From assembly GCA_010093815.1 (NCBI GenBank), contig ML996565.1: a stretch of DNA of 64,000 nt; one strand, written 5' to 3'. Source of the stretch: Pseudovirgaria hyperparasitica (taxonomy: Eukaryota). This document shows positions 26,454 through 51,845 of this stretch, piece after piece. Both the position numbers and the translations under genes were made by a program. A model generated the notes under the pieces. The model had not been told where the DNA came from, did no database searches, and worked only from the letters and a program-made list of their open reading frames with translations. Numbering within the stretch: the first letter of the stretch is position 1; every line of letters begins with the position of its first letter.

Positions 26454-26773
26454 TGATTCCTGCCTGACGAAATCGTCCAAACATTGTCAGACGATGTTTG
26501 CGGGTGTTCTGGCGGGATTTAATGGCTAGATATGTATGTCGAGTGTCAATGTCGAAGGCTCTACAGTGCAAGCTTGCAACAGGACAGTAGTTTGAGAACA
26601 CGCAACTGTTTGAAGTACAACCTATATCAAATAGAATAGAACGTGTTTCCAGAGGATGGTTTGTAGAAAACGATGCGCAAGGTGGATGGATATGCTTTTT
26701 CTTGCAGAGCTCTTACTAAGAAGTCTGATTAGCTTGAACTAGGCTAGCCGCCCCTCGTTTCCAGCACTCCGAA

Positions 26774-31337: not shown

Positions 31338-32469
31338 TCACCACGCCCCCACAACCCCAGCAACAGGAATATCAATACCCGTCGTATACCCCGCCCCATC
31401 ACACAACAAATACACATACGCACCCCCAACCTCCACCGGCCAAGCCAGCCTGCCCATCCCGCCATAATACCGCATCTTGACCTCCCAATCCGGCGTCCGG
31501 TCCACAAAATACGTCATGCCCGTGCGCACAAACCCGGGTGACACGCTGTTGACCCGGATGCCGTAGGGCGCCCATTCCATGGCTAGCGTGTGCGTCATGT
31601 TGCGGATCGCGGCTTTGGTGCTTCCGTAGGGCGCGGATGGGGCCGCGCGGTTGGGCCGGTAGGAGGTCATGCTTGCGGTGAAGACTATGCTGCCTGTTGT
31701 GTGGAGGCGCTGGAATGTTTGGGCGGCTGCGCGCGCGGTGTGGAAGGCGCCGAAGACCTGTGCGTGCGGGTTAGTGGGTTGGTTGGGGGAGCGCGGTGGG
31801 TTGCGGGGAGGTAAGTAGGGAGGGAAAGAGGAGTTGTAGTCGTCGTGGTTGTCGTCGTCGTCGTCGTCGTCGTCGTCATTGCGGGGTGATGATATCATCT
31901 TGCTACGATATGTCTCGGGAGGAGGAGGGGGGTGGCTTTGGCACGGTGTCCTGATAGAAGTGCGAAACCAAAAAAAAGGGGGGGGATAGAAGAGCACAAC
32001 GCACATTAAGATCAAACATCTCCCTAATCTGCTCCTCCGTAAACTCAAACGCAGGCTGATGCCTCGTCATACCCGCATTCGCCACAACGCCATTCAGCGT
32101 GCCCTCGCGCGCGACAATCTCGTCCATCGCAGCCTGCACGCTGGCTTCCTTTGTCACGTCCGTGTGGATGAATTTGAGTCGTCCGTCGTGCTTCCTGGCT
32201 AGGGCGAGGAAGTCGGCGTAGTCTGCGTTGTCGTCCGGGTTGGTTCCGTTGTCGTTGTCTGGGAAGGGCGAGACGAGATCGAGCGAGTAGACGGCTGCGG
32301 CGTCGTTTTCGAGCGCGACTTGGGCGATGCCGAGGCCGATGCCGCGGTTTGCGCCGGTGATGGCGATGACTTTGGTGGAGAGGGTGATGCGCCAGGAGCT
32401 GTCGAGGGGGCGCTCGGTGGAGAGGTAAGGGGAGACGGCTGAGGAGTCGTCGGGTTGGTGGTCTGCCAT
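31338..32469 (-). CDS. Short-chain dehydrogenase/reductase (polyol/ketose oxidoreductase-like), SDR-A, 2 exons
   Basis: ITGANRGIG, YSLD (Asp after beta-2 suggests NAD), VANAG, VFTASM, catalytic YGSTK, IRVNSVSPG, YTTGIDIPVAG; intron 32004-31758. Confidence 0.92.
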
Positions 32470-33679
32470 GGCGGCACAAAGAGTCTGTTGAAATGGATGA
32501 AGGAATATGATATTATGAAGCTGTGTTGGACGTCTTCTTGTTTGCACGGCTTTGTGGTATGGTATATAGCTGGCTGGCACGTGGACGTGTAGGTCTGATG
32601 TTTTGGATGGAAGAAGGCTTCTTTTACGTGGCAAGCATCGAATTATGTATCTGATAATACCGCAACAGGATGGCAAAGGGAATGCAAACAGACGAAAAGC
32701 ATTACTATCGAGACCATCCGGCTCTCTTTATGCGTCGTCGCTCCAGTTCCGGCAGTCAAATCATTGACAATCGCGCCAGCTTCCGCTCACTGTCACCTCC
32801 GTCACTTCCGCCACTAATATCTACTGGGAGCTCACATCCGAGGCCAACATCTGCCTCTTTCTCCAGACGAATCAAGGTATACCTTGGACAGACGCCCGTG
32901 GAGTCTCGCCCTGTTGTTGACCGAAAAAAAATAAAACTCCACTGTTTAGCAATGGGGTTGTATTGATTCTCACCATCACTTATTATCTCATTTGCCCTGG
33001 CAATGAAGCCTACTTGCGACACATTGTTCCCGATCTCAAGGCTCACGATTCCCGTTGCACGCGCTCTGCAGCTACGCATCAATAGCTGCGGGAGCCTCGA
33101 GACGGGGGCTGCGGAAGCTCCCGCAAGCGAGCCGCTGATTGGGTGGGGCCATGTGGGACCCAGCCGTAGCACGCTAGGATGAGCGGTTCCCCGAGTCGAG
33201 GTCACAATGCTATGCTAGCTTGCTGACTTGTTGTCCTGTCGCGGAGTACTTCGTGTTCATGCACGGTGTGTGATCGCACGGCATGCACGCCGACGCTATA
33301 TCGAGTCAGGAAGAGTAGGTAATCTGGAGTTTCATTTGGCCCCAGGTATCGTACGTTGCGGGGAAGCGGGCTGAGAACCCGGAGGAGTCGTCCTCGATGC
33401 CGTAGAGCTTACTACGGAACGATGTCCGGGGGATGTATTCATCCAAAGGGTGTTGTAAAGGGCTCGTTGCGTAACTTGATTTGCTGGATTGAGTACCGGT
33501 GTACAGAGGGTGTGCCAGACATGCTCGGAAATGAGTCTCATTGAGCTTTGCAATGCTGTATTTCCCGGGCGTCCAGCCTTATGCCGTTTCTGCTGTTATT
33601 CAAACGCGTCGCTCATCTCTTCATCGACTGAATTCCAAATTTCAACCAGACTTCTGTGTTAGATGTCCGTCGTTGCAGT

Positions 33680-35240
33680 ATGGCGACTAATAAAATGACA
33701 TCGAGCAGTTTTGAACATGTCGAAGTAGCGCCGCCAGACGGCAAGCTAAATGCTTCCGAGATTTGCGTAGAGCGTATAGAAGAGGAGAGACGGCTTGTGA
33801 GGAAGGTCGATCTGTATCTGCTACCAACGATTTGGCTGATGTATCTATTGTCGTATATGGATCGAACAAAGTAAGAAACAGCGGGGCCCCTAACGGCATG
33901 TATGCTAACAGCTCCAGCATTGGCAACGCCAAGATTGCGGGCATGGAAGCAGATCTGAGGCTTTCTTCCAGCCAGTATTCGATAATGTTGGTAGTCTTCT
34001 TCGTCACGTACGTCTGTTTCGAAATTCCCTCAAACCTTGTCCTGGCCAAGACACGGCCGTCCGTATTCCTGCCGGTCACTATGATTCTCTGGGGCATCGT
34101 GACTTGTTGTATGGCAGCTGCTACATCTTACAAGCATCTCATCGCTTTGCGCCTGATCGTCGGTTTACTGGAAGCTGGTTTTGCACCCGGAGTACTGATG
34201 ATCTTATCGTCATGGTACAAGAAGAACGAAATGTCGAAGCGATTTGCGGCCTATATCTCTGCAGCTGTATTATCCGGAGCCTTTGGTGGTCTTCTGGGTG
34301 GTGCCATAACACAGGGTCTCGACGGTGCGCATGGGATAGAAGGGTGGCGCTGGTTATTCGTAAGTATCATCTTCGAGGCGGATGATTATTCGACATGGAC
34401 TGATTGACTTTAAAAGATTGTTGAAGGAGCTGCGACTATCAGCTGGGCCATTATCGCACACTTCATTCTTCTCGACTTTCCCAGTACCACAAAGAAGTTC
34501 TCTGCGCGTGAAAGACTTCTGGCGACCGAGAGATTACAGAGGGACAACGTAACGGCTACGACCGGAAATAGCAGCCCAAAGGTTAGCTCAATGCAAGCAA
34601 CCGTCATATCGTTGAAGAATTGGAGAACTTGGGTCCTCACCTTAGGCTACATGGTACATCTTCCAAATGGTTTGGTTCCAGACATAATGCTAATGCCATA
34701 GAGGTCATCGTTGGGTCCTCGACTCTTTCATACTTTTACCCAACCTTGGTTGAAGGCCTGGGATATACGTCGCATATGGCGCAGTATATGACGGTTCCCA
34801 TCTATGCGGTAGCATTCGTCGCAGTCGGTTTCACAGGATACTTTGGGGACCGGATTACAGAATACCGAGGAGTAGTAATCGCGAGCTGGCTTGCCCTTAG
34901 CATGGTGTGTAGCATCGTTGTATGTGTTGTCTATGACTTCACAGCTCGGTATGCACTGCTGGTAATCATGGCTGCTGGGCTCTGGGCGTCAAATGGATTG
35001 GCGCTGTCCTACGCGGGCAGCACGTTTGGCCCACTGCAGCAAGAAGTCCGCGCAGTCAGCTTGGCCTTCGTCAATGCCATGGGAAATCTGGCTCAAATCT
35101 ATGGCGCGTACTTGTTTCCATCGGACGACAAGCCGAAATACCTGATGGGGTTTGGGGTGATCAGCGGTATGTGTGGGTTTGGAGTTGTTGTGTACACGGT
35201 CGCGCACGTATCATTCAAGCGATGGCCCACGACATCGTAG
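33680..35240 (+). CDS. MFS transporter, anion:cation symporter (Dal5/Tna1/tartrate-like) family, 4 exons
   Basis: LVRKVDLYLLP..YLLSYMDRTN|IGNAKIAG, FEIPSN, EAGFAPG..SWY, GAFGGL, EGWRWLF|IVEG, LDFP; introns ~33871-33917, 34360-34415, 34654-34701. Confidence 0.93.
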
Positions 35241-36737
35241 ACATCTTTGCCGCGTTCGTATGCCGAGATCTCGCACGACTCAAGGAATACGATTGTGGTA
35301 AGACTTCGTTATGGTGTTGTGGCGTATGATGGCGGCTGCTGCGAGAGATCTCCGGGGACATTTAGGTTCGGCCGGTAAGCCGTCGCATGAGTTTCGGGTG
35401 AGAATGTGCTGGCCATCATTGGACGAAAGCAGTGAGATTGACAGGAGGGTGTTTTCTATGTCGAGACTAATTAGAGTTCATGAAGAAACTCGATCGACGT
35501 GGTGGTGGAGTGGATGCAAAGAGGCGCAGGCAGACGCCACCGATCCTTAGTCTAGGGGTGCACATCCGAAGTTTATCCGCAGCTCGCGCTAGCAGCGAGT
35601 CAGTGCGATTAGACTTCTGCATCCTATTCAAAACAAGCTCCAACTCGTCAATCTCTCGACGGTGAACACTCCTGTCCTCCTATCGCTGGGAAGACCGGTC
35701 TGACGCGGCACCTGTTCCTCTCCTCAGTTCGCCATCGCAAGATCGGATTTTAGGATCCGCGTCATGTAAGCCATCGTGATGGCGTGGGATGCTAATGTCC
35801 GTCTCTCACGCGTTGCTGTCTTTGCTCGCAATACATACACCATAGTACACAGTAATACCACGGCAATGCTCACTTGCATTCACCGTTTCTAGTAGCAACT
35901 GAATTCGCATATACAAGCCGTGTCTTTTTGAGCTTCTCCGCTTCCGAGAAGCATTTCGAATGCCCCCAAATTCGCCGTTGACCAACTTGTTCATGGGATT
36001 CATCCTACGACGCATCGGCGCATCACCGCATACGATCCTGTTTGGCAATACTCGCGTGGCGGCGAAGAGCTTCGAGCGGTCGCTAGCCTTATGGAGTTTG
36101 CGGAGCTAACTGCCGTGGACTTCGCGGTATAATACATAATTATGGTTGAGGTGTGGCTGGAAAAGGGCCGAATCAGGGCGGAAACAACGTTGGTTTCATC
36201 CAGCTCGGAACGGGCTCCGTGCCAGCACTCGCATACCTGTCCTTGCAGGTTTGGAAAGTCATGCGAAAGCTCCAGTTGACCGAACACCGGCTCCATAATG
36301 CATGCGACCGTTTTGCTGGTACGAAGCTTGAAGAGAAGCTGTCCATTTACCTTCAGACCGTGTACAGTTATGTACAATCCATCATTTATTTTTCGGGTAC
36401 TAGGAACAAGGGTTCTTCGACAAGAGATTATTCCGGCACGCTGCGGAATCCAGAGTAATAAGCCATGGATCCTTCTGACAATTATCAAACATGGTGGACA
36501 AGAGGACACGTGAAAACCGTACGACACTGACGTCGTTGATCTTCGCTCGTGGGTGATACTATGAATGCACAGCTAATTAATGGTGGGCTAACAAGGCGTA
36601 CACCGAAGCGGGAGCGCCGCAAGTTGGCGCCGATCATGAACGCTTTGAATGAATAGCAGGAACCGCGGCGACGACGATCCAATGTCTTTTAATGTCAGAC
36701 CCACGCACAGCGTTAATATTGCATCATACGGCATTGT

Positions 36738-38722
36738 CTATTGCAAGAGAGCTGCAGAGAGGCCCCCCAGGAAGACAGCGGCAGCATAAGCCCCTGGGTC
36801 AGGCGGTATGTCTGACTGGGATTCAAGCTTTTCATCGCCGACGTAGGTAGCACGGCCAAATTTCGCACGCATACCCTTGGTCGTGTCAGCACCACGTTGC
36901 GCAGCCTGTACCGACTTGGCGAGTTCTCCAGACTGTTGCAGGGTCTCACAGAAGGGGATCAGGGCGTCCATCACAGTTCTATCCCCCACTCTAGCGGAGG
37001 TGTACTGCTTCAGCACATCAAGAGCGGGGCCGATGGTTTTCGAGACTGTGGTGATGGAAACGTCAGACGAGCTTCTATATGCTTGGCGCAATTGACTGGA
37101 GAAGGCGGTGAGGAAGATGCTCAAGATTGCACCCAGTGAGCCCCCCATGTCCTCGACACAGTCCCCCACCTGTTCAAGAAAGGAAAATAGCGGCGAGTTC
37201 GGGGACAGGTCCGAGTGCAGCTTTGTGAGTATGGAATTGCAAACCATGTCAACAGCTTCACCACAATCGCCATCACCCATCAGAATGTCATATTTTGTAA
37301 TGTCTGGTTCAGCAGCACGGGCGCGCTTGCAGGCCTCTGTTAGAGCTCGAATGATTTTAGCAGTCACAGGAGGGCCCTGGTCTTGGCTGGCGGCAGCTTG
37401 CGCGTCAGCTTTGGCTTTCTCCCGCAAACGTGCACATTCCTCGGACGGCTTGGCAGAGAGATAGCTGTTCTTGGGCCAGGCGGGAGCGGTAGTCGGGGCG
37501 TCGAGCAATTGAAGAATGTCAGACACAGTCAGTTCCATTGCTTGTGCAATACCTGTCAGGTTTCCCACGGTGATGGAAAAGCCAGGCCCATTTAGTGAGG
37601 ATTCAAAGGTACCGGCGTAGATGCGGATCGGCAACAGATCCCAGTCGGCCTCTGCAGATTGGGGTCAGTGCACGGCAATAATTGGCGAGACGCGCAAGCA
37701 GGAGCGAGCGCACCTAGTTGTAACCCTGCAATGTTGGCGAGAGCCTCCAATTCGAGGTTGGAAAGGCCACCGAAATTATTGATGAGCATGACGACTTCAT
37801 CCTTGGGATTGAAGGTGACAAAGGCACGGTCTGGATCGGACGGGTCGAGAAGATGGGCATACATCTGCTTGACCAAGGAATCAGCGCTAGGAATAGGGGA
37901 GATTGTTTGAAGTCCCTGGGCAAGATCAGTACAGGTATGAGATGCATGTAGATGGATTGCCAAAGCTTATTACTGGCTCGTTGTGGATACCCATGCCCAG
38001 CACGCAGGCGTTTGCGGGGACGGCCTCGTGGTGAGACCTCCCTGGAACGTGACAATGATCAAGGCTTGTGCCGATGGTGACGAGGTGGGAGTTGCCCAAG
38101 TTGCCCAGTTTCAAGACAGAATCAAAAGACCAGGCTTGGTGATTGGCAGCACCAATAAGTTTCAGGACTGTGGATATCTCAGCAATGGTCAGCTGGTGTG
38201 CAAGGAGGGGGAAAAAGGATGATAGAGGCAGATGATTGTGCGGTCAGTACCTAGAAGATTGCCAGCGAGGCCTCGTCGACCGACAAGACCGGCCTTTTCC
38301 TTGCCCAAGGCAGCATCCTCCGACATGTTGACAACGTCGACACGATGACCGAGGGCGAGACCCTTTTCGCGGGCCAGGCCAAAGTGCAGCTTGTCCCCTG
38401 TGTAGTTTGTTATGCAGAGAATGATGCCCACATTTGACGGGACGCTTCGGATACCGGCCATGATTTGCTTTGTGGAAGGGCTGGCGAAGATATCACCGCA
38501 CACGGCAGCGGCCAACATGCCATCGCCAACGTAGCCGGACCAGGCTGGTTCATGGCCACTGCCCCCGCCAGAAATGATGGCAATCTGGGAGGGCTGATGG
38601 GATTTTGAAAAGACGACTCTGTTGACAGGATCTAAGTCCAGATTGGGATGCCTCTGGACGAAAGATTGCAGAGCCAGTGGCACGAGGGCTCTGGGTTCGG
38701 CAAAGAAATGCTTGGTCGACAT
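36738..38722 (-). CDS. Dihydroxyacetone/triokinase-family kinase (fused DhaK-DhaL), 4 exons
   Basis: ISGGGSGHEPA, GDIFASP, NYTGDKLHFG, VGRRGLAG, SLDHCHVPG, GMGIHNEP, NNFGG, DhaL motifs GDGDCG, MGGSLG, ARVGDRTVMDAL, GRATYV, PDPGA; introns ~38250-38153, 37973-37919, 37712-37653. Confidence 0.95.
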
Positions 38723-39149
38723 TGTCGGATAAGAGTGAGTGGCTCGCGGTGAGAACAGTGAGGTGCGCTCTCTCTCTCAATGGCCAATCGAACCGGATTA
38801 GGGTTCGTGCCAGGGCGAAACAGACAGCTTTACGAGCTGCAGGAACGATAAAGGGCTAGTCGGGCGGGCGACGAGTGACAGAGAAGGAGACTTTACTCGG
38901 AATGGCAAATTCGCGATCGGAGTGTTCGACTCGCGAGCCGTGTCGGGGGACGACAAGAAGCAGCAGATGGAAAGGAAGAAGATGTAAGGAGAGACGGGCG
39001 GGATAATAGGAGGAGAACGAGGAGGAGAGAGAAAGCAGGCGAAAAGATCAGAAAGTGAAAGTTCGATGATGGCGGGGTACTGTTCTACTACTGTGTAGGA
39101 TGAGGATGGTTGGGTGATGCACAAGGAACTTGAAGGTATCAGGAGGAGA

Positions 39150-40610
39150 CTCTCTCTCTCTCTCTCCCTCTATCTCTCTCTCTGTGTGTGAATGTGTGTG
39201 TGAATGAGTGTGTGCTGCTCTTGATGGACGCAAATTTGAAAGGACTTCTTTCAGTCAGTGTGTGTGTGACGAAAACACAGCATTGATGCGTGGGCAGTCC
39301 ATGCACCATGTATGTTGTGTGTATAATTATACCGTGTATTTTCTGCCGAAAGAGAACAATGATAATAATGACGCAAAGGCGGAGGCAGAACCTTGGACAG
39401 TGCAGGAGATGGCTCCGAGCTGTGATTATGACAGGACAGCCAAACAACACTGTGGATTACTTACTGCTGCAATGATGTCGATACTAATTACTGCTGCTAT
39501 GGTAGTACTGACAGCCTTTATTATATCCTTTTGACGGAGTAATTGCAGTCGTAACAGTAGCTTTAGACGTTAGCTAGACAGTAGCTATAGACTCTCGTAC
39601 TTCTATACTAATTACATACTGTGTTTATAAGACACACACAGTAGTAGTAATGAGTAGGTAGGTAGGTAGGTAGGTATAATAGCTACAGTAGCTGCTGCAA
39701 CCCCCCCGAGACAGGGCGGCAGTACAGGACACAAAGTACTGCTATGTGCCTGTATATACTTGGGTGAGAGCCAAGAATACGGGGGGTGCAGTCTTGTCAC
39801 GAAGCGGGCATCGCGGCTACCGTCGGGGCTGTCAGCTGCTGCTTTTTCCGGGGGGGAAGAATTTGGGGGGGATTTAGGAGGGGGGGGGGGAGGGAGGTGA
39901 GCAAAAGGGAGGAATCCCATCACATTCACTCCACCTCGTGATCCATACACCTAAACATTCAACACCACAAAACACCACCAAAACCACCACAACCACCACG
40001 TCCACCACATCCACCACCAAAAGTAGGCGCATTGCTCTTTCTGGCGGCCCGAGAACGGCATATATCATTACTACATGGCAATTTATCCTTGAGAGCCGTC
40101 GTGGTAATAAGCATCTAGGTATATGTATACATAGTGCTAGCACACATCAACAACCTTAACGCCGCCGCTGCTGCTGCTGCTGCTGCTGCTTCTTCTTCTT
40201 CTTCCCCACAATAATCATCATGGCACTGACAAGAACGACAACACACTGGACAATGCATCATTCCACGGCCTTGTGGCCCTCAGACCAGCCAATCGCACCA
40301 CCTGCTCTGAACGTTCTCCTTGTCTCCTTCAGCCTGGGCCAATCACTATCATCGTTACCTTCTTTACCCTGGGAGGATCCGACAAAGTCAGAGAGGCGAA
40401 GCAGCATGCATTTCATCCTTTCCTCATCTCGCCCGCTCGTCCTGCCATCCATGCCATGATCAATCACTACACATCACACATCACCCGTCTCCCTTCTCCC
40501 GTCACCCACCTCCCGCTACTGGCCGAAGGAAAGAGAGAGAAAAAAATAAGCAACAAAAGACCAGCGTTAAAAAGTCGATATAACCTTGATGCTGCTGCTG
40601 CTGCTGCTGC
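39150..40610. repeat. Microsatellite-rich intergenic region: (CT)n, (TG)n, (TAGG)n, G-runs, (ACC)n, (GCT)n/(TCT)n
   Basis: Directly visible simple repeats between the kinase and regulator genes. Confidence 0.9.
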
Positions 40611-41001
40611 GCCCAAAACCGCCTAGTCCGCCCGGCTTTTCCAGACTGGTTGGCTCTATACCTTTCTGGGACTTCTGCCATGTATGCAGCCCATGTCATA
40701 ACGTATATCTGCGGCGAACCATCCGTCCAAATAATCACTTAATTACTATAGGATGCTACTTAGTGCGCACCAAGAACGGCAACCGAAGAACCGGCCTCGG
40801 GCGAGCGACCGGGTTCAGGGTGCACAGATATGGTCCTGCGTCGTGGACAAACCCCCAAATAGGTCGTAAAAGAAGCCTTGGCCACTACGCACGAGTGTAT
40901 GCAGGTGCATAACTTTCTACTGCGTGCTGCATGTTGTAATACTATCATGCACATAATAAGGTAGTACGCCCCATGTCCCTGGTCTTTCTCTCTTTCTCTC
41001 T

Positions 41002-41071
41002 NNNNNNNNNNNNNNNNNNNNNNNNNNNNNNNNNNNNNNNNNNNNNNNNNNNNNNNNNNNNNNNNNNNNNN
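41002..41071. other. Assembly gap (70 N) in a CT-rich tract
   Basis: Run of N flanked by (CT)n and a C-run; true size unknown. Confidence 0.99.
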
Positions 41072-41528
41072 CCCCCCCTCTCCTCCTTTCCCCCACTCAG
41101 CCAAAACAAGCTCCATCCACGCAACTATGCATCCACTATGCCGCCTCCATTGACGAACGTTCAAAATGTTTGCCATTAAAAACTATGACTCGCTCGCCTT
41201 CGCGAACTTCAGTATGGATCCGCTCTCCTCTACTGCTCTTCAAGCCTGTAGCGTCCAACCTTTTGATTCATTCATTCTTCCACCCTCTGAATCGCCTTTG
41301 TCGACTCGTCCTGATTCTTCTCCTCCTCCAAACGCCCTGTTCACCGACTACTCATTCTCTTCAACCTCGCCTTTTCCCTCGTAACGGTAACGAGCTGCTT
41401 CTGTTCCTTCACCTCACTCACGCACACTACTCACACACATACACACATACACACATACTCATACACAATATCTCACTCTCCCACCCTCTCTCTCACACTC
41501 TCACGTGCTCCACCTACCCCTCGACACG

Positions 41529-43942
41529 ATGATTCTCACACCCACTCAAGAAGAGTCTCACAAATCTGGGCTGAATGGGCAACGGAAGCCCCGTAAACCA
41601 AGAGGTCGGGGACTTCGTACCACAACAGGCTGGTAAGCATTGCTCAGTACCGTACCTTGCAACAGCATCATGCGCGCTCCAGCTTTTTTTTTCTTGCGCC
41701 CCCTCGAAAACTGGAGATGACATGACTCCCGTATAAACTCTTCCGGTGCGCGTGCTTGCTTGCTCAGGTGGCTCACATATGACGACTCAGTGCGGTATGT
41801 AGACGCAGGCATATGAAATGCGACGAAGTCAAGCCTGTGTGCGGGCCCTGTGCAAAAGGTAACCGCGACTGTGTATACGGACATGCAAAAGTACGTGGGA
41901 TAAACACTTCCTTTCTTTCCTTCTCCATTCAGTGCAAGGACCTGGAGCTTGAGCTTGTTGAACCCCCCCAAAGCCATAAAACAATCCATCTGCACGACAT
42001 CAATCTGTAAGCAAGCAAGCAAACAAGCAAGCTTTGCGGTTGTGAACGGATGAGCCCTGAGACAAGGCAGGCCTCTCTGACTGGGGGGGCATCAGGCCTC
42101 TCTCGAATCGGGTGGCATATAAAGCGGTGATATTGACCTTTCCGTACAGTCTCCGTGTAGCACTGCGGGCTCAGGCACAAGTGACGTTGAACCACCCTCC
42201 CGAACTCAATCTGGACGTCTGCCTCCCTCCACAACCTGGCAACAACCACTTCCGTTAAGATCGTCAGCTCCCTCAAACAACACTCCATATCCACAGTCCG
42301 CTCTCGATGCACGTCTACAAACTATTCCTGCCCTGTCCACCCTTCCAACACAGCACTGGGCCCAGAACAAGCAACGTCATAGTCCAGGCAGTGAGCCCGA
42401 CCTAGGACAGCTCCCGTGGAATCAAACAACAACAGCAGCAGCAACAAGCTATGGCGACTCCCAAGATTCGACTCCTGTCTCCAGCGTCCTCGAGCCGCAT
42501 CGCTGGTTTGGCCTGCTGGCCGAGGACTGTCCATTCGATGACAACGACTATTTCACGGCTAGACGGAATGAGATGATGCGGCTACAGGCTCAAAGTGCCA
42601 GCAACAGCCCAACCGCCAGAGCAAGTTTGCCAGATACCGACAGTGGATATCCCACGCCCCAGATGTCACACTTGAACTCGCCACACCTTGGCCTGCCGCC
42701 GTCGTTGATGCCCTCGATGGCTCCTCGAAGCTCAGTGCCGAATGGCGACGAACGTGAGCTGTGGCAGGCCCCCATCACCCTCACTGATCATCAGATCTGC
42801 CTCTTCAGCACATTCGTCAACCATCTAAGCTTGTGGCTTGACCTCTACGATCCCTTGAAGCATTTCTCGACCATGGTACCCCAGCTTGCCCTGTCCAATG
42901 AAGGTCTCATGAAAGCCATTCTGGCCCTTGCTGCCCGCCATCTCTCTATCAAGCCTCAGGACTGCAACGTTAGGCCCGATCGCACCGAGGCTGTGCAGTA
43001 TTATTCCGAGACTCTGCAGTATCTCCAGCGTGCCATGAAGTACGAGTCCTACACGCGCAGCCCCGACATCATCGCTACTGCCCTCATTGTTTCGGCGTAC
43101 GAGATGATTGACGGCGCCGGCAAGTCCTGGGAGCGCCATCTTAAGGGCGTCTTTTGGATCCAGCGATCGCAGGAGAACCATGGTGAGTCAGGTGGGTTGC
43201 GACAGGCCGTCTGGTGGGCGTGGTTGCGTCAGGATATCTGGGCGGCCTTCCGCGAGCGGAGAAAGTGCTTCTCTTTCTGGAGGCCCAAGAAGTCTTACTC
43301 CATGATGAACCAATACGAGATTGCGAATCGTGTCGTGTACCTCGCTGCCCAAGCTGTGAATTACGCCTCTGAGGAGGAGCGCAAGGCTGGCGAGGCCAAT
43401 GTGCAACAACGCATGGACAATGCTGACACCCTGTTGAATATGCTGGATGACTGGAAGAGGCACTTGTCCATCCACTTCCAAGAGCTGCCCATCCCGAAGA
43501 GTTCCAACAGTGACGCGGCCTTCCAGATCCACTGGATCAACCCATCTCCATTTGGTAGCTTTCCCAAACCCTCCAGTCATATCTTCCATGCTCTTTACTG
43601 ACCGCACCCTCAGCTTGCGCCATGCAATACTACCATTTTGCTCGTATCCTCCTCATGATCCACCGCCCTGCACCAGGTGGTTATCTGGAATACTCGAATC
43701 GCAACAGTACCATTGCAGAGTCAATCGACGTTATCGGCGGCATCGCCATGACGATCAAGGACCACGCTGCCACCATCCTCTCCACGCAAGCTTTATACTG
43801 CGCCGCTCTCTACACCTCCGACCCGTCCAAGCAGGCTGCCCTCTGCAAGATGATTGAGGAACACCAAGATCGCACCGGGTGGCCGGTCATCCAGCTCAAC
43901 GAGGAGCTGCGCATGGAGTGGTCATGTCAGGGTCCTTTGTAA
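41529..43942 (+). CDS. Zn(II)2Cys6 transcription factor with C-terminal fungal-specific TF domain, 4 exons
   Basis: Spliced KPRGRGLRTTTG-C|AVCRRRHMKCDEVKPVCGPCAKGNRDCVY; RWFGLLAED; WLDLYDP..HFS..VPQLA..LMKAILALAARH, YEMIDG..WERHLKGVFWIQ; introns 41633-41790, 41891-42149, ~43555-43613. Start codon is a best guess. Confidence 0.92.
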
Positions 43943-45395
43943 GTAGTAGTCTTGTACTCCTTCTGGGTTTGTTGTTCTTGCAAGATGTGGTTTGCGGGCT
44001 CTGTTCGGACTTTGACCGTTCGTTAGCGCTCGTTGGCTGACCTTGCAATGCCAGCATGTTTCCGACTCCCCCTGACGAGAGCGATATCCTGCCTGACAGA
44101 TACTTTGACATGAGCATGGTGTCGTCGGGCCCGTTGCAAGATGCGAAGATGGCCATGCACTGACATGGCTCTGCCCAACCGGACAACTTCTCTATACAAC
44201 AAACGTTTCTCCCGTTCCCTGTCCCTTACTCAGCCTTTCGAAGCGACGTCAGCAAGGAAGATACGTACATATTGCCTTCTCTTCTTTTCCTATGTTGAGA
44301 TGTGGGCGGGTCTCACTTTTTGGCGTTTCGGGATGTCCACAAGAAAACGATGCATCTTCATTCTGATTGGCGAATGTCGTCCTCCATCGATCTTTGTTAC
44401 AAGGTCTTTGCATGTCACGGTCGTGACAAGACATGTGCGGGGCGCCAAAGGCGTTTTTCACATGATGCTCCGTATACCACTTCTCTCCGGCACATGTCAT
44501 GGTGGGTGCGTGTAGTCATTGGCGTCTTTTTTTTCTTTCTTCTCCTTGCCGGATGCTTACCATAGGCCGAATATGCGGGCCAGTGTAGCGCTGGGGTTTT
44601 GGTTTTGAGGTATGAATACATGATGGGGCATGACTGTGAGAGAAACGACTCCAGGAGACGACTACTTGAGAGATGACTGGTGAAAACGACTTGAGAGATG
44701 ACTGAGAAAACGACTGTAGGAACACACTGTAGGATATATACGTATATATGGCTTGTTGAGAGCTAGGCAAGTTGCAACCTACCGATCGACCGTCCCGGGG
44801 TCTATGTTTTCATGTATTTTCCTTTCTCTTTTCTTTTGCACTTTCCCTGCGAATATAGAACATCTTTGGGCGGGTTGTTTTTGGGGGATGGGGAAGCGGG
44901 AGTTTTTTGGGGGTTTTTTCGTGATTCTCCATTCGTTATCGTTCGAACCGTACACGAAAAAAGTCTGATCTTTCACGAGACTTGGGATGAGGGGAGTGGA
45001 AAGGCAAAAATTGAGGGAGGAGGAGGATGAGGATGAGGAAAAAGAAGAAGCTGGATCTTTCGTTCTTCTTGTCAAGTGCCGATGCGTTCTGCTGTGTCAA
45101 CAAGCGAGAACAACAACAAAGGCAACATGGGAGAGAGAGGGAGCACTCGCTGCGCTGCTTGCTGTTCTGTATGCATGTATGTATGTATGTACGACATTCT
45201 TTTCTTCTTACCTATACAACGCAATATCGTCAGTAGTCTTCTTTTCCTCATTTCGTGTCTTGCGTGCCAAGGATAAACAGGGGAGGGGGTAGGGGGGGCA
45301 AGGAAGCATTCCATCGGTGCTCACTGCTGCATGCTCACATAGTCATCGATCCACCCCCTTCCCCCCTCCCCCTTCTCTACTCCCCTCTGTCCCCT

Positions 45396-46321
45396 CTACA
45401 TCTGTCCCCATTGTCCGCCTCCCAACAAATCCCCCCCCACAACCCCAATCCCAATACAAAACAAAATCAAAAAATCAACAAATCCCAATCCCCCCATTAA
45501 CCTGCACATCCACACCCGTCACATACCCGGCCGCCCCGCTGAGCAGGTACACATACGCACTCCCGACCTCCTCGACGCTGGCCAGTCGCGGCAGGCCGCC
45601 GTAGTAGTGCAGCTGGGTGGCCCAGTCGGGTTGGCGGGAGACCCAGGATGTCATTGCTGTTTTTACGAGGCTTTTTTTTTTCGGTTAGATTTTTGGGGAG
45701 AGGAGGGGAGAGGAGGGGAGGATAGGGGGAGATAAAAAGGAGAGGGGAAAAGGGAGAGGGGGAGGATAATGGGGGAACAACGTACCCTGGTGAGACGGAG
45801 TTGACGCGGATGTTGTACTGGGACCATTCGAGCGCGAGGGTTTTGGTCATGTTGCGGATTCCTGTGGTGGGTTAGGGGAGGAGATTGAGGGGGAAGGAAG
45901 TAGAGTAGAGTAGAGTAGAGTAGAGTAGAGTAGAGTAGAGTAGAGTAGAGTAGAGTAGAGTAGAGGCCACACGTACCCGCTTTCGACGCACCGTAGGGCG
46001 CAGATGGGACGCGCTGTCGTACGGAGGAGGAGGTTAGCATCAGTTGCTGAACTCTTGGTACTGATGGTGACGGGTAGGTAGGTAGGTAGGTAGGTAGGTA
46101 GGTAGGTAGTGTAGTCTCAGTGCCAACGGTCTATCCATCACAAAACGCACAAAAGACCCACCTTATTCGGCCTATGCGACGCCATAGACGCCGTAAAGAC
46201 CACAGACCCAGCAATACCAAGCCTGATAAACGCGCGAGCCGCGACGCGCGCAGCATAGAACGAGCCGTAAAGCTAACACGTGTTTGATTACATGTCAGTA
46301 TGACGCGCGACAAAAAAAGAC

Positions 46322-46362
<41 letters not shown>

Positions 46363-46629
46363 AAGGACTGAGATGATGAAAGAATTGACACAAAGGGAAG
46401 GCCCCCTACATTTACCCCCCACAACCCCTCGATATCCGCCGCCGTGAATTCGAGCGCAGGCTTGTGCATCGTCCGGCCGGCATTCGCGACCACGCCGTCG
46501 ATGCGGCCCTCGCGCGCGATGATCTCGTCGATTGCGCGCGTGAGTTCGTCTTCGCGCGTTACGTCTGCTGTTAGGGCGTGGAGCTGGCCTGGGTAGCGCG
46601 CCGCTACGGCTTCGAAGTCGTTGTTGGTT

Positions 46630-46661
<32 letters not shown>

Positions 46662-47087
46662 GCTGTTGTTGCCCGTGTCTGGCACGACGCCGCTGATGTC
46701 GAGCGAGTATACGGCTGTGGCGCCGTTGGCGAGACAGCAGTCTGCGATGCCGAGGCCGATGCCTCTGTTTGCGCCGGTGACTGTGGGGTGGGGGGTTTGG
46801 TGGTTAGGAGGGGGGCTTGGTGGGGTGGGAGATCTGTGTGGTGTTTTTTCTTGTGGTGGTGATGCGAGGTCGGTGTGGTAAAGGGTTGGGGGGATGATGA
46901 ATGATGACGATCATGATGATGATGATGGATGGACGGCAGACGTACTGGCGATGATTTTCCCGTCGAGCGAGATTTTCTTCTGTGGGTTGGTTGGGATGAC
47001 GGTGAGATCTGTTGTTGTCGGTGTTGTTGTTGATGTTGCGGTTGATGAGGCGGCTGGAGGCGCGTCAGGAAGTGATGAGGATGCCAT
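45396..47087 (-). CDS. Short-chain dehydrogenase/reductase SDR-B, paralogue of SDR-A, ~6 exons (C-terminus uncertain)
   Basis: Manual splicing gives KISLDGKIIA|ITGANRGIGLGIA..YSLDI..VANAG..HKPALEFT..GVN|LYGSFYAAR..VFTASMASHRPNK|RVPSAPYGASKA|GIRNMTKTLALEW..IRVNSVSPG|LVKTAMTSWV..QLHYYGGLPRLA..YVTGVDVQVNG; introns are filled with microsatellites. Confidence 0.87.
45901..45965 (+). repeat. (TAGAG)13 microsatellite in an SDR-B intron; (TAGG)n at ~46074-46108 and (AG)n at ~46327-46359 lie in other introns
   Basis: Perfect repeats seen directly. Confidence 0.97.
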
Positions 47088-47607
47088 CTTGACGGGTTTT
47101 TTCGCTCGAGGAATAGGGGATGGTGGATGGTGGACGGTGGAGGACAACACTGTCGCTGCTGCATGGCGGCATATATAACCAGCGACTCCGGCCGCCTATA
47201 TCAATAGTACAGGCGTCTTCATGCAGGCCTCCCGATGCGTCGGTACGGCCCAGTACCAATGAAGCATCTAAACCCGGAACTTGGGTACAGTGTTTGATGC
47301 CTCGAGACGAGGAGGCTTTTTGTGGGTGGATCAGATAGATGTCCGACCTCAAAGGTCGTCGAGTCTTACTTTCCCCCCATTTAACCTGAATTATCCGGAA
47401 GAACTCTTCCAGCAGCTGGTCCCAATGGTGTTTGATTTGAAATCAACCTCGAGACTTGCATATGTTGTTGTGCTGTGGATGGTGGGAGTGATCATTTGAC
47501 AAGACGTCGAATTGAAGTTATTATTTTACAACTATTCCTGGTTTAGCTAAGCTAGGAGCTGTGTGGTCGTAACGCCTACGCACCTCATTGGACACCCACT
47601 ATCCGAT

Positions 47608-48649
47608 ATGTCACCTCAATCGCCGACGTTGAAGGGAAACAAGACCGTGAAGATCCTGCGCGATGCAGAGGACGGCGGTTATGGCATCGTTGCGCCTATT
47701 GTGTATGCCTTGCTCTTTCAACCCCTTCCCCCTACCATACAACTAGACGCCTTCGAGCATGGTACTGATTCCAATGCACAAGCTACAACATAGGGCACAT
47801 CATAGCGTGCATCCAAGCCGCCGAGCGCAAACGGTCGCCGTTGATCATACAGATGTTCCCATGGGCAATCACAGTCTCAGATGGCCTGATCGTCCACGCT
47901 GCCGCTCTCGCAGCATCCAAGGCTTCGGTCCCCATATCGATTCATCTGGATCACGCGCAAGATGAAGCACTGATCCGGTACGCTGCTGACACGCTGCCGT
48001 TTGACAGTATCATGGTCGACATGTCCCACTACGAAAAAGAAGAGAACCTTGCAAAGACCAAGGAGCTGGTGAGGTATTGCAAGGAGCGCGGCATCGCAAC
48101 CGAAGCGGAGCCTGGGAGGATAGAGGGCGGGGAAGACGGGATTGCGGACACTGCAGACTTGGAGGGCATGTTGACGACGCTTGACGAAGTTGACGAGTTC
48201 ATCGGTACGGGCGTCGACTTTCTTGCGCCGGCGTTTGGAAATGTGCACGGCGAGTATGGGCCGAAGGGACCGCAATTGGAGTTCGATAGGTACGGCAGTC
48301 CATCCATCTGTTGGCGCCTGTCAGCAGCTCCTTTTCTCAATCTCGTCTCTAACGTCATCATGACAGACTCGACGCCCTTCGCAAGCATGCCGCCGGTCGT
48401 GTTCGGATCGTGCTACACGGGACGAACAGCTTCTCCGAGGAAACCATGCGCGAGTGTATACGGCACGGCGTGACGAAAGTCAACGTCAACAAGCTAGTTC
48501 TGGACGACTACCATTCGCATCTGCAATTGAACGCTAGCAAGCTGAGTCTAACCCAGCTGATAGAGGAAGGTATCAAGGAAACGGTGAAGCTGCTCGAGTG
48601 GCAGATGGACGTCTGCTGGTCGACAGGCAAAGCTAGCGCGACGAAGTAG
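47608..48649 (+). CDS. Class II (Zn-dependent) ketose-bisphosphate aldolase, non-glycolytic short type, 3 exons
   Basis: SPLIIQ, IHLDH, MVDMSH, EAEPGRIEGGEDG, LAPAFGNVHGEY, VLHGT, KVNVN; introns ~47703-47782 and 48290-48367; ~290 aa, shorter than and unlike glycolytic Fba1. Confidence 0.92.
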
Positions 48650-48808: not shown

Positions 48809-49603
48809 TCATCCAAAAACACCAGCCCTTCTCATGACTCCCACGAACTCATCTCTCTTTACTCCCTTTTTGACCCCGTTGTTTCCCTGGTCCCCATTCG
48901 CGACCAGAATCATATCCTTCAACACCTCATCGGGAACCTCCTCCTTCAGCTCCCTCGCCACAAGCTTCAGATGCGCCATCGTGATTGGCCCGTCGTGCCC
49001 ATGGGTGAATAATTGCCAAGCATGCTCGATTTCCTCGTCCTGTGCCTCTTCTTGTTCGGCGTCTGACCCGTCATCTGGCCGGTTATTCAGCAGTAGAGCT
49101 GCGTACGCAAGGAAAGGCCCGAAAGTGATGTATCCCGTCTCGGTGGGATCAAGTGTTTCGAAGAGCTCTGGCAGTTCGCGCGAGGATACGCTCAGGTTGA
49201 GTGCTCTGGCAACCGTCAGTTTTCTTGCATCAATCTTTCGTCCTGGCTGGAGTGTGCGCACATCAGACACCGTCGTACATCTTCTCTTCGGAGCGCTTCC
49301 TCGGCTTCTACTTCTTTCGCCTTGCCCTTCCCTTTCCTCCGCCGCCGTCCAGTCCCGAGCACCTCGTCTGCGTCCTCTTCATCATGGTCATGCTCGGCCT
49401 GTTCGATTGGCGCTCTTGTCGCAAAGAGATTGAAGGCCTCTGTGATCTCGTGGACCTGTGCGTCTGTGATGTTGTTCTCCTTTGCGAGTTTGGAGCGTGC
49501 TGGCTTGGGCGCAGCGGCGGCTGGTGGAGGAGCGCGGCGTTTGGGCGGCTGATCATAGTAAGCTTGGGAAGTAGAAATCGAGATCTTGCTCGAAACATAC
49601 CAT
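48809..49603 (-). CDS. EF-hand calmodulin/centrin-like protein, 3 exons
   Basis: ATG|GTATGT microexon, PPKRR..RSKLAKENNIT..EITEAFNLF, DVRRCL, LDPTETGYITFGPF, AWQLFT..GPITMAHLKLVARELKEEV..LKDMILVANG..DEFVGVMRRAGVF; introns 49600-49549 and ~49260-49205. Confidence 0.82.
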
Positions 49604-50033
49604 GCTGGGACCGGGTATGGCAAATGAGTTTGGACGCGTACTTGCAAAAGAGTGGTCGCCTGTCTGGCGGATGATGCTGACGATGATGATCAACCCCGCC
49701 TTGCGTACATTACAGCCTGCAGGGTATGCAATGATCACGCCCAGCATTACGTCGTTACTGTCATGGCGGCGACGAAACTTGAAACATCAATTCACGCATG
49801 CAGGTTTTATACTTCGTGCACCTAAATTTAGCTCTACTTGATATATGAGCGAAATGACTTGGTTGTCGACTACCGGATAGCTTGTCAACAACAACACGAG
49901 TTCTGTTTCCTAACGTCACATTGCAACTACTCATACTACTCCTGCTCCTGTACCGGATCACTGTCCAGGCAGCACGACAATCTTTCTTGCTGCTTGGTCT
50001 ACTATTCCTTCTCTCACTTCCCGACCAGTCACA

Positions 50034-51845
50034 ATGTCTATCACGATCCTCCCGGTTGAGATACTTGATATCATCACTAAAGACCTTACCGTCAGGGACT
50101 TCTTAGCTCTCTGCAGCACTTGCAAGGCTCTACATGACCCAAACATACGCCTGGACGCTGGATACTGGAGCCACGTGACGCATGAACAGTTTCGTCTGCC
50201 CAATCGACCTGCAGTCGAAGGCGACGGCAGGAAATGGCAGAAGCTGTACCGCAGACTACAGACGCAGACCAGCGTCTTCACCTGGGGCAAGTCAAATCGG
50301 GGCTGTCTAGGCCGACAAGGACATGCACGCTGCAACCCAGTACCACTGCCCATGAACAACATCAAGGAGCTTGGGATCATTGCTGACATGCAGTGTGGTG
50401 GATGGTCGACCAGCTTTCTTACCTCTCGAGGATTACTTTACGTGGCAGGGGTGCTGGATGGGATGACGGCGGAATATGCAGTGGATGGAGTTGTTGCTAG
50501 ACTCAAGTATCCTGCGTCCGTGCCAGATCCGCTGAGAAGAGAAAATCCGAACAACTCTCTCGTAGCCATCCGGCAGTTCTCGTCAGGCAGGAATCATATT
50601 CTAGGGCTTTCAGACTCGGGTCGGATCTGGACGTGGAAGTCTCATGCAGAGCCAGCACTTCAAGTGAAGTTTCTTCACGCAGACACATATGAACATCGAA
50701 AGGTCACGGCGCCTGGAGCTGTCAAACAGGTCATGGCGGGCTGGAACTTCAGCTCAGCGTACGTGACCGGAGCCGGTATCCTCTTGTGGGGGGTACATCG
50801 TGGACATACGGACCCGGAGGTTGATACTGTAGTGCTCGATGCTACGGCCGTCCCATGGACGAGTTATGAGTCAGCTAGGAAAAGCGATCGCCAGACGGCG
50901 TGGAAGACGGAGGATGAAGAGGAAATTGTCGGCTCTGTCGTGACATGGGTATGCCTAGAGAACTACGTCGTGTTTCTCACGGATATAGGTCGTATCTTTG
51001 CCTCCAGGGTCGAATGGGACAACATTTCTATTGTTGTCGGCAACAGCTTCGAACTCAGGCCGCTCCGAAGCACGAACCCCTATCCGACGTCCTGCGACGT
51101 CCAAGGCTCATTCCGCTCCTTTGGAGTCTTCATGAACGGCTCCGTCGCTGTGCTCCACCAAGATTGGCTCGACTCGTACTCCCACGCACAGTGCGCCGTC
51201 CCTCCCAGTGCCCTCATCCCCGCCCTCCAACAGTCGGGCGTACAACAGCTCGCATTTGGCGACTACCATTTCCACGCCCTCCACAGCGACGGCACAATCA
51301 CGTCGTACGGGAAGGAGCCATCGGCATGCGGTGCTCTCGGACTGGGAGGTGGGTGGAACAAGCCGTCTCGCACTATCCGCGGCGTGCTGAACAACCACGA
51401 CGCAGAGCTCATCCCTGAAGCGCGCCAGACGGGCCGTCGGGTCTGGTTCGAGCCGGAGAAGCAGAAGTGGCTTGAATTCCTGAGTCGCGGCGGGGCAGAT
51501 CCGGATGAGTCGAAGGAGCGGCGGGAGGTGTTGAAGACGCGAGGAAAGGGGCTTGTGGAGCTGAGTGAGTGGGTTGAGCGGCGGGGCAGGAACTGGGATT
51601 GGTTTGCACGGGGTGATGACGGTGATGGTGATGGCGAGGATGAGGATGGGCTTGGGGCGTACTTTGCGCTCAGTGTGAGTGCGGCGGGGTGGTCGAGCGG
51701 GGCGTTGGTGCTGGTGAATTCAGCGTTGACGGAGAAGATGGCGGGGCGAGGGAGCTTTTGGGAAAGCGAGAGGTTTCCCAGACTGAGGCTGAGGGACGGC
51801 ACGGAGATGGCGGGGACGATTGAGGTGAGCGAGTGGACGGCGTGA
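50034..51845 (+). CDS. F-box plus RCC1-repeat protein (Saf1/Pof9-like SCF-associated factor)
   Basis: N-terminal F-box LPVEILDII..LCSTCKAL; RCC1-like motifs VFTWG..GCLG, DMQCGGWS, FSSGRNHILGL, AFGDYHFHALH..G.LGLG, SAAGWSSGALVL. Confidence 0.85.
   Translation: MSITILPVEILDIITKDLTVRDFLALCSTCKALHDPNIRLDAGYWSHVTHEQFRLPNRPAVEGDGRKWQKLYRRLQTQTSVFTWGKSNRGCLGRQGHARCNPVPLPMNNIKELGIIADMQCGGWSTSFLTSRGLLYVAGVLDGMTAEYAVDGVVARLKYPASVPDPLRRENPNNSLVAIRQFSSGRNHILGLSDSGRIWTWKSHAEPALQVKFLHADTYEHRKVTAPGAVKQVMAGWNFSSAYVTGAGILLWGVHRGHTDPEVDTVVLDATAVPWTSYESARKSDRQTAWKTEDEEEIVGSVVTWVCLENYVVFLTDIGRIFASRVEWDNISIVVGNSFELRPLRSTNPYPTSCDVQGSFRSFGVFMNGSVAVLHQDWLDSYSHAQCAVPPSALIPALQQSGVQQLAFGDYHFHALHSDGTITSYGKEPSACGALGLGGGWNKPSRTIRGVLNNHDAELIPEARQTGRRVWFEPEKQKWLEFLSRGGADPDESKERREVLKTRGKGLVELSEWVERRGRNWDWFARGDDGDGDGEDEDGLGAYFALSVSAAGWSSGALVLVNSALTEKMAGRGSFWESERFPRLRLRDGTEMAGTIEVSEWTA

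Follow-up and report, generated by a model that had tools for sequence, protein, structure and literature searches.

A 64,000-nucleotide stretch of the Pseudovirgaria hyperparasitica genome (assembly GCA_010093815.1, contig ML996565.1; hereafter the window) was found to carry six contiguous genes that, judged from their sequences, form a conserved, co-regulated fungal catabolic gene cluster. The genes encode two short-chain dehydrogenases/reductases (SDR1, 31338..32469, minus strand; SDR2, 45475..47087, minus strand), a major facilitator superfamily (MFS) transporter (33680..35240, plus strand), a DAK1-DAK2 kinase (36738..38722, minus strand), a transcription factor with Zn2Cys6 and Fungal_trans_2 (PF11951) domains (41529..43942, plus strand) and a lyase with the class II aldolase fold that belongs to the LTD / 2-OtnC lineage (47608..48649, plus strand). 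The cluster most likely specifies a route, undescribed in fungi, from a small sugar acid of four or five carbons to an intermediate of glycolysis. New here is a cis-element, CTCGA[GC]ACG, that appears common to the cluster across many fungi. The reading that we favour, with a probability of about 0.5, is that of a regulon for a C4-C5 aldonate, which would be imported, oxidized at its penultimate carbon, phosphorylated by the DAK kinase and cut to dihydroxyacetone phosphate (DHAP) and CO2 or glyoxylate.

Conservation of the cluster in ascomycetes

The search with the aldolase exon listed at least 120 relatives at 75-83% identity (own record excluded) from several ascomycete classes. Gene neighborhoods were compared in the best 80 of 240 aldolase loci recovered from a metagenome scan. 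In a tree of these 80 loci, 31 joined the window gene in one clade (41 rows, support 100/99), and the remaining 49, with paralogous aldolases, served as the comparison set. Orthologues of the partner genes were confined to clade loci: the transcription factor was present at 12 of 31, the MFS transporter at 8 and the DAK kinase at 3, compared with 0 of 49 for each in the paralogous set. SDR1-type genes were found in six clade loci and SDR2-type genes in eight, with both together in two. When only loci of at least 4 kb were considered, a partner gene accompanied the aldolase at 19 of 21 orthologous and at 0 of 36 paralogous loci (Fisher p 3e-13, a value that is overstated since the loci are not independent and several are near-duplicates). 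Thus, the coherent catabolic cluster that had been proposed from the six genes of the window is conserved as a linked set.

In named genomes, linkage was inferred from consecutive accession or locus numbers. The aldolase, SDR2 and DAK genes lie no more than five genes apart in Glonium, Lophium, two assemblies of Coniosporium apollinis and one Zasmidium assembly; the aldolase and DAK genes are adjacent in Meristemomyces, and the aldolase and SDR2 genes lie within three genes of each other in Elasticomyces and Malbranchea. In one database protein, P0377, the aldolase follows an N-terminal SDR1/2-type portion in the same chain. The fusion may be genuine or may come from two gene models run together, and in both cases it is a sign of adjacency.

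Clade loci also contained genes that are absent from the window cluster. An Lra1-like aldose 1-dehydrogenase was present at 8 of 31, DenD-like, RpiB, sugar porter and further SDR genes at three each, and an SMP-30 lactonase at two nearly identical loci; these assignments come from a scan of 113 open reading frames (ORFs) of the clade loci, with NCBIfam scores of single exons that lie below cut-off. All three RpiB genes stand beside the DAK gene (L047, L058 and L079). The transporter was present in 6 of 6 SDR1-bearing loci, and the Lra1-like gene was found mostly with SDR2 (5 of 8). LtnD and OtnK were each seen at 0 of 31 clade loci and not in the window, and OtnK adjoined none of the 80 loci.

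In one branch of the comparison set (L054, L056 and L057) the paralogous aldolase adjoins an FMN-dependent 2-hydroxy-acid dehydrogenase of the cytochrome b2 type, as scanned in L054 and L056, possibly another partner that oxidizes aldonates at carbon 2. A scan of prokaryote genomes for close relatives with their context returned a single locus (L122), an intron-bearing contig of fungal type with an aldolase of 78% identity within a cyanobacterial genome bin, which is likely contamination of that bin.

No description of the cluster was found in the open literature, subscription journals and supplementary tables lying outside the search, which agrees with the earlier statement that no biochemical characterization of this combination in fungi was known. 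The cluster genes are unmentioned in the excerpts available of two fitness-screen papers (PMC13534542, PMC7873862).

A promoter element shared by cluster genes

An unguided k-mer count over regions upstream of the aldolase gene returned CTCGAGACG in 16 of 18 (window included). The density of this element was 47 sites per 272 kb in clade loci and 7 per 501 kb in the other loci. A variant, CTCGACACG, was added after four such sites had been seen, giving the consensus CTCGA[GC]ACG. The consensus was present upstream of the aldolase at 20 of 21 clade loci versus 3 of 41 paralogue loci. Of 25 promoters of other cluster genes, which lay outside the discovery set, 15 contained it, 11 of them in the exact G form; shuffled controls of these 25 promoters gave a mean of 0.41 and a maximum of 3, with the caveat that the regions were chosen after the site densities in clade and other loci had been seen.

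The window carries the exact element in each of its two divergent enzyme/transporter promoters, at 33096..33104 (plus strand) between SDR1 and the MFS gene and, as CTCGAGACG(AG), at 47301..47309 (plus strand) between SDR2 and the aldolase gene. The variant form lies at 41520..41528 (plus strand), immediately 5' of the start codon of the transcription factor gene. Both exact sites are among the 12 genome-wide matches of the 12-mer CCTCGAGACGRG, for which the control gave 5; an 11-mer extension of the element had 27 matches in the genome versus 19 in the control. The element is not rare in itself: three exact sites were counted in the window, one of them inside SCC3, against 0.64 expected, and sites with one mismatch numbered 17 against 15.5 expected.

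Other members of the gene set are marked in the same way. Lra1-like and DenD-like genes each carry the element in at least one clade locus, while the lactonase gene does not. In L020 the DAK and aldolase genes share a divergent promoter that contains it. The exact element was absent from all 16 stretches of the P. hyperparasitica genome examined around the other DAK genes, the other two aldolase genes and the Lra1, DenD-like, RpiB and LtnD-OtnK genes. Of the 26 non-cluster matches of the 11-mer, 12 in long ORFs were dropped, and no sugar-catabolic gene was found around the 14 scanned; a match at the serine hydroxymethyltransferase gene is within the coding sequence. Tandem pairs of elements no more than 30 bases apart were seen at 0 of 181 loci, and CGG-type spaced motifs in the promoters gave weak signals. 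Upc2-like Fungal_trans_2 factors bind sites other than CGG repeats, and an element without such a repeat fits a factor of this kind. We infer that the resident Zn2Cys6 factor binds CTCGA[GC]ACG and that the cluster would be self-regulated.

Co-regulation of all six genes, as originally predicted, holds in part: the element precedes four of the five target genes in the window, the exception being the DAK gene, which in addition is unlinked in seven Pleosporales (see below).

The class II enzyme groups with the LTD / 2-OtnC lineage

Databases label the family of the class II enzyme as tagatose- or fructose-bisphosphate aldolase, and in Aspergillus niger three or four genes are all named fructose-bisphosphate aldolase (PMC2375020). 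The window enzyme shares the fold, the zinc ligands and the catalytic Asp and Glu with Fba1/FbaA and GatY/KbaY: the zinc-binding and catalytic residues D109, H110, E182, H226, H264 and N286 are kept as D88, H89, E149, H187, H218 and N240. It is, however, only 24-26% identical to these enzymes and lacks their N35, S61 and distal-phosphate Arg (R331, in the DPR motif). No NCBIfam aldolase model scored above cut-off, the best values being 175 bits against 343 and 169.6 against 215.6. In full-length relatives, the columns of E. coli FbaA N35, S61, T289 and R331 hold I in 84 of 87, F in 87 of 87, K in 86 of 87 and T in 87 of 87, respectively, with I, V or L in 87 of 87 at the N35 column and K or R at the T289 column. 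In the E. coli enzyme these four residues take part in binding the glyceraldehyde-phosphate half of the substrate. In the alignment the distal-phosphate Arg is lost and I/F/W side chains occupy the acceptor pocket, which is predicted to be closed.

A profile search of 1.84 billion proteins identified LtnD-OtnK-aldolase fusions (P0394, E 2e-58; P0407) as the nearest non-fungal proteins. In a 61-row tree the fungal family, these fusions and a cyanobacterial group without the distal-phosphate Arg formed one clade (38 rows, 100/99), with GatY, YdjI, an IolJ-like protein and the aldolases that bear the Arg outside. A topology holding the fungal family with GatY and the fructose-bisphosphate aldolases was rejected (p-AU 0.017, for a group named after the tree had been seen). 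A structure match in the Atlas, with TM 0.90, was to a plant cluster of SBD/NBD/aldolase proteins, and sister clades of fungal aldolases adjoin DenD-like (11 of 49) or LtnD-like (10 of 49) genes. The F_bP_aldolase domain of LTD is reported to match bacterial 2-OtnC, the 2-oxo-tetronate 4-phosphate decarboxylase (bioRxiv 10.1101/2025.05.18.654769). The class II gene is thus probably not one for a bisphosphate aldolase, and it may encode a decarboxylase; its assignment as a class II aldolase stands for the fold and for the zinc and catalytic residues, and fails as regards membership of the Fba1 and GatY families.

Dehydrogenases, transporter and kinase

SDR1 and SDR2 are 54% identical and carry the marks of classical SDRs (TGxxxGxG, S-YxxxK and an acidic residue at the end of beta2). 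An acidic residue at this position is a signature of NAD+ use (PMC12994016), and both enzymes are of the NAD+ type, with Asp64 in SDR1 and Asp75 in SDR2; the position is acidic in 115 of 120 SDR2 orthologues. Both also have a basic loop, SYRPNR in SDR1 and SHRPNKR in SDR2. In SDR2 orthologues it reads [YH]RPNKR in 112 of 120 and lies between the catalytic Ser and Tyr. The nearest SDR structures are those of mannitol 2-dehydrogenase and gluconate 5-dehydrogenase. These enzymes oxidize the carbon that adjoins a terminal CH2OH, and oxidation at this place would give a dihydroxyacetone-like end of the kind bound by DAKs. The [YH]RPNKR loop is absent from the nearest structures, the fungal mannitol 2-dehydrogenases. 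In the SDR L-threonate 3-dehydrogenase Ltn3D, an Arg in the same loop binds the carboxylate of the substrate (PMC12994016).

Exon 2 of the MFS gene, the one exon scanned, had as its best NCBIfam match TIGR00893, a D-galactonate transporter (E 2.6e-31, below cut-off). The protein appears to be of the anion:cation symporter (ACS, TC 2.A.1.14) type, with an organic acid anion as its presumed substrate. The kinase is a fusion of DAK1 and DAK2 domains that scores above cut-off with the glycerone kinase model TIGR02361 (620.8 bits over 574.95), and its catalytic H57, D110 and H219 align with E. coli DhaK. DAK-family kinases are known to act on C3-C4 ketoses. Motif changes were considered as a marker of specificity (HEPAW in 101 and CITNYTGD in 117 of 120 subfamily members); they are not diagnostic, since the same positions also vary in the other two DAKs of the genome.

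Proposed pathway

The original prediction had left a polyol, a rare sugar and a sugar acid side by side as possible substrates. The ACS-type transporter, the basic SDR loop and the Lra1-like, lactonase and D-erythronate-dehydrogenase-like partners point to a sugar acid more than to a polyol, chiefly because an aldose dehydrogenase and a lactonase together make an aldonate. The transporter would import the aldonate anion, which in other fungi could also be made inside the cell from an aldose by the Lra1-like 1-dehydrogenase and the SMP-30 lactonase. SDR1 and SDR2, each probably handling a different stereoisomer, would then oxidize the carbon beside the terminal CH2OH and leave a dihydroxyacetone-like end. 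This end would be phosphorylated by the DAK kinase, which might instead take dihydroxyacetone freed by spontaneous decarboxylation of a 3-oxo-tetronate. Finally, the zinc-dependent class II enzyme, with its DHAP and metal site kept and its distal-phosphate site lost, would leave DHAP, converting 3-oxo-tetronate 4-phosphate to CO2 and DHAP in the C4 case or 4-oxo-pentonate 5-phosphate to glyoxylate and DHAP in the C5 case. The Zn2Cys6 factor would control these genes through CTCGA[GC]ACG. The order of steps first suggested, oxidation, phosphorylation and cleavage to DHAP, is retained in this scheme.

We give C4 and C5 substrates about equal odds. Threonate and erythronate are the C4 candidates; mapping of the stereochemistry to the rule of fructose and tagatose aldolases yields L-xylonate/D-arabinonate or L-lyxonate/D-ribonate as C5 candidates. 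A broader claim is held tentatively, at rather less than even odds: that tetronic and pentonic acids (for example, products of ascorbate breakdown) are used by an undescribed pathway widespread in ascomycetes, in which a DAK kinase acts on an oxo-acid, the 'aldolase' is a decarboxylase or lyase, a Fungal_trans_2 factor reads CTCGA[GC]ACG, and the paralogues are the fungal 2-OtnC.

Current annotation places the additional class II 'aldolases' of ascomycetes in glycolysis or tagatose metabolism, with which gene context, residues and tree disagree; the re-reading affects genome-scale metabolic models and the interpretation of the structure 3PM6. For finding the substrate, the cluster offers a known set of enzymes together with a candidate regulator and an element of 9 bases. 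If true, the favoured reading would show fungal use of plant C4-C5 sugar acids, and an inducible promoter system might be derived from the cluster, though it is also still another cluster for carbon catabolism whose enzymes come from known families.

Points against the proposed pathway and alternative explanations

Several observations weigh against the aldonate reading, and many of them concern the kinase, which is the loosest member of the cluster. All six genes occur together in none of the fetched loci (five do in L067 and L074), and the DAK gene is present at few clade loci, a count limited by short contigs. In all seven Pleosporales pairs that could be compared DAK is far from SDR2: by locus tag the two are unlinked in Neocucurbitaria, Plenodomus, Ascochyta, Neodidymelliopsis and Boeremia, and they are also unlinked in Aaosphaeria and Trematosphaeria. 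The DAK and aldolase genes of Arthrobotrys are separated by 15 accessions, and in a second Zasmidium assembly the DAK and SDR2 matches are on different contigs, although SDR2 has paralogues and this pair may not be that of the cluster. Linkage of orthologues, a key expectation of the original prediction, is thus borne out at most loci of at least 4 kb and in several genera and breaks down for DAK in the Pleosporales. The DAK promoter of the window lacks the element even within one mismatch, and the exact form is also absent in L058. With regard to the class II enzyme, the fungal family differs from LTD and the cyanobacterial proteins at the N35, S61 and T289 columns, so a decarboxylase function is not simply transferable. 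Around the cyanobacterial relatives, 8 of 8 regions lack both LtnD and OtnK within 8 kb; the presence of OtnK in 15 of 15 genomes with the relative and in 14 of 20 others favours neither side clearly. Polyol dehydrogenases rank first among the SDR matches. ACS-like transporters of Yarrowia are induced by erythritol and Euf1 (PMC10935855), and the transporter class is therefore no proof of an acid. RpiB beside DAK in three loci is easier to reconcile with erythrulose phosphate than with oxo-acids, and a separate candidate tetronate gene set in the same genome (described below) would make a second C4 route partly redundant.

Some of these points would be accommodated if the substrate were a tetritol (erythritol or threitol) or free erythrulose, which we regard as doubtful. 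The SDRs would produce erythrulose, DAK would form L-erythrulose 1-phosphate and the class II enzyme would split it to DHAP and formaldehyde, much as if the Yarrowia EYD1-EYK1-EYI cluster ended in an aldolase; alternatively, an RpiB shunt would end in erythrose 4-phosphate. In addition to the SDR relationships, the RpiB neighbors and the transporter induction just mentioned, the closed acceptor pocket suits a one-carbon leaving group, and a fate as DHAP and formaldehyde has been proposed for erythritol use by yeasts (lichen preprint 10.64898/2026.07.28.741190). A polyol route, however, offers no function for the Lra1-like, lactonase and DenD-like genes, although the element is found upstream of Lra1-like and DenD-like genes; the SDR substrate loop is basic, and TIM-family matches were 0 among the 113 clade-locus ORFs scanned. 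The element is also unlike the Euf1 motifs, and Euf1 has 951 amino acids versus 645 for the factor encoded here (PMC5624910, PMC11394100). The absence of RpiB- and TIM-type isomerases, on which the idea of an aldolase-terminated route was originally based, is confirmed for the window and, as regards TIM, for the clade-locus ORFs scanned; RpiB is encoded in the genome 550 kb away. A mixed case lies between the aldonate and tetritol readings, in which oxidative decarboxylation would turn a pentonate into erythrulose, on the model of the D-ribonate route (PMC13753588).

The behavior of the kinase would also be explained if the locus combined two adjacent modules, a regulon of transcription factor, aldolase, SDRs and transporter that uses some other kinase and a DAK(-RpiB) unit of another pathway to which it is linked in some genomes only. 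The missing element before DAK in the window and L058 and its unlinked position in seven Pleosporales agree with this, and an OtnK-domain gene that could provide the other kinase exists on C15 of the genome. We nevertheless consider the combination improbable: OtnK is beside none of the 80 loci, the L020 promoter joins DAK and aldolase under one element, and DAK-aldolase linkage recurs in Mytilinidiales, Coniosporium, genomes of the Mycosphaerellales type and the distant branch of L058. Even less probable is a hexonate substrate, in which 5-keto-D-gluconate, fructuronate or tagaturonate phosphorylated at C6 would be cleaved to DHAP and tartronate semialdehyde, like the IolC/IolJ and YdjH/YdjI systems. 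Gluconate 5-dehydrogenase is among the nearest SDR structures, and among plasmids the top match is a class II aldolase from an iol cluster; but the IolJ-like protein and YdjI lie outside the clade, the filled pocket leaves little to recommend an acceptor of that size, a C6 substrate is at odds with the C3-C4 ketoses of DAK-family kinases, and no tartronate-semialdehyde reductase was seen among the clade-locus ORFs scanned. Finally, a pathway of the Hers type, put forward earlier as an alternative, proves very improbable. Here the aldolase would cleave a ketohexose 1-phosphate or bisphosphate (from sorbose, tagatose or fructose) and DAK would salvage glyceraldehyde. The database labels agree with it and a 1-phosphate would be a fitting substrate for an enzyme without the distal Arg, but no hexose kinase was present in the window or the clade-locus ORFs scanned, no NCBIfam aldolase model reached cut-off, and the lineage and pocket residues of the enzyme are contrary.

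Relation to known systems

The aldonate reading can be set beside several described routes. The three-step tetronate route LtnD/DenD - 2-OtnK - 2-OtnC, reportedly described by Guo in 2024 (as cited in bioRxiv 10.1101/2025.05.18.654769), and plant LTD (AT1G18270) follow the same logic of oxidizing, phosphorylating and removing an end to give DHAP with an F_bP_aldolase fold. The window enzyme is of the same lineage and likewise lacks the distal Arg, with the differences in three pocket columns noted above; the window has SDRs in place of LtnD/DenD, a DAK in place of the DUF1537 kinase, stand-alone genes and a Zn2Cys6 regulator. The cluster thus appears to work like the tetronate routes without being a member, having no LtnD or OtnK partners. 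The Ltn3D bypass (PMC12994016), compared by description, similarly has an SDR that oxidizes a sugar acid to an oxo-acid; Ltn3D is bacterial, prefers NADP+ and feeds OtnK/OtnC, whereas the window SDRs are of the NAD+ type. The bacterial D-ribonate route Rib2D-OrnI-DerK (PMC13753588) is a case of sugar-acid metabolism that includes a kinase of the DAK family. The Yarrowia cluster EUF1-EYK1-EYD1-EYI1-EYI2 (PMC5992420, PMC5624910) has a Zn2Cys6 factor, a DAK-family kinase and a dehydrogenase in common with the window; it differs in its TIM- and RpiB-type isomerases, other promoter motifs and polyol substrate, and no aldolase-fold gene is reported for it in these excerpts. E. coli YdjH/YdjI and Bacillus IolC/IolJ employ class II aldolases on keto-acid monophosphates to produce DHAP (from ydjI annotation and iol context). 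The substrates of YdjI and IolJ are longer, and YdjH and IolC are PfkB-type kinases.

Related genes elsewhere in the genome

The kinase and aldolase are not the sole housekeeping Dak1 and Fba1, an outcome that would have spoken against a dedicated cluster: the genome encodes three proteins with a Dak1 domain and three class II aldolases, namely a long Fba1-type enzyme at C1:179k, a 56% paralogue at C7:237k and the cluster copy. The third DAK-family gene (L001:1489-2418, C1:1766869) appears to lack DAK2, as its ORF ends after the Dak1 domain. An LtnD-like gene adjoins the paralogous class II gene at C7:236k-238k (L007), an LtnD-OtnK fusion is encoded at C15:504k-507k (L120) and a DenD-like gene at C4:1847k (L116). 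Together these genes look like a fungal equivalent of the three-step tetronate route and of plant LTD; the string 'fung' occurs nowhere in the LTD preprint (bioRxiv 10.1101/2025.05.18.654769). The protein of PDB entry 3PM6, labelled a putative fructose-bisphosphate aldolase, looks like the C7-paralogue type.

Gene models, transcripts and flanking regions

All six gene models are open and intact, with zero internal stops, and the DAK and class II aldolase models are letter-identical to database proteins P0121 and P0001. The models are SDR1 (294 amino acids; exons 32469-32005, 31757-31338), MFS (468 amino acids; 33680-33870, 33918-34359, 34417-34653, 34704-35240), DAK (593 amino acids; 38722-38251, 38167-37974, 37915-37714, 37651-36738), the transcription factor (645 amino acids; 41529-41632, 41791-41890, 42150-43554, 43614-43942), SDR2 (310 amino acids; 47087-46946, 46780-46410, 46272-46162, 46013-45977, 45861-45786, 45670-45475) and the class II enzyme (294 amino acids; 47608-47702, 47783-48289, 48367-48649). 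The divergent intergenic regions measure 1.2 kb (SDR1/MFS), 2.8 kb (DAK/transcription factor) and 520 bases (SDR2/class II gene). No additional gene was recognized among the six; the DAK/transcription factor region contains a 70-base N gap at 41002-41071.

Splicing was assessed with contigs of two runs from one sample, whose library type is not on record. Contigs skipped 12 of 17 modelled introns at their canonical modelled ends: 3 of 3 in DAK, 3 of 3 in the transcription factor gene, where spliced contigs placed the second intron at 41891-42149, 2 of 2 in the aldolase gene and 4 of 5 in SDR2. None of the three MFS introns was skipped, nor the single SDR1 intron, which was not covered. Together with the intact models, these contigs substantiate the predicted run of six contiguous genes between SCC3 (STAG/SCD domains, ORF end 30531) and an EF-hand gene (48809-49378, minus strand).

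Inside the MFS gene a spliced joint with CT..AC ends, corresponding to a minus-strand intron, was found at 34555-34641; the MFS introns are covered unspliced, and one contig spans the DAK gene into the MFS gene, which suggests a possible antisense transcript over the transporter. Further joints at 43938-44055 (plus-strand ends, just 3' of the transcription factor stop) and 44217-44268 (minus-strand ends, approximately 1.2 kb past the SDR2 stop) suggest introns in 3' untranslated or overlapping transcripts. The more distant neighbors are ordinary: UreD (25455-26486), an RCC1-like repeat protein (49914-51845), a PAP2-family protein (53902-55371) and inositol-1-phosphate synthase (59500-60375). 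The left end of the window (1-5620) is AT-rich, with a GC content of ~0.31 over 1-4000, carries a reverse transcriptase/RNase H fragment at 4736-5620 and is a decayed retrotransposon.

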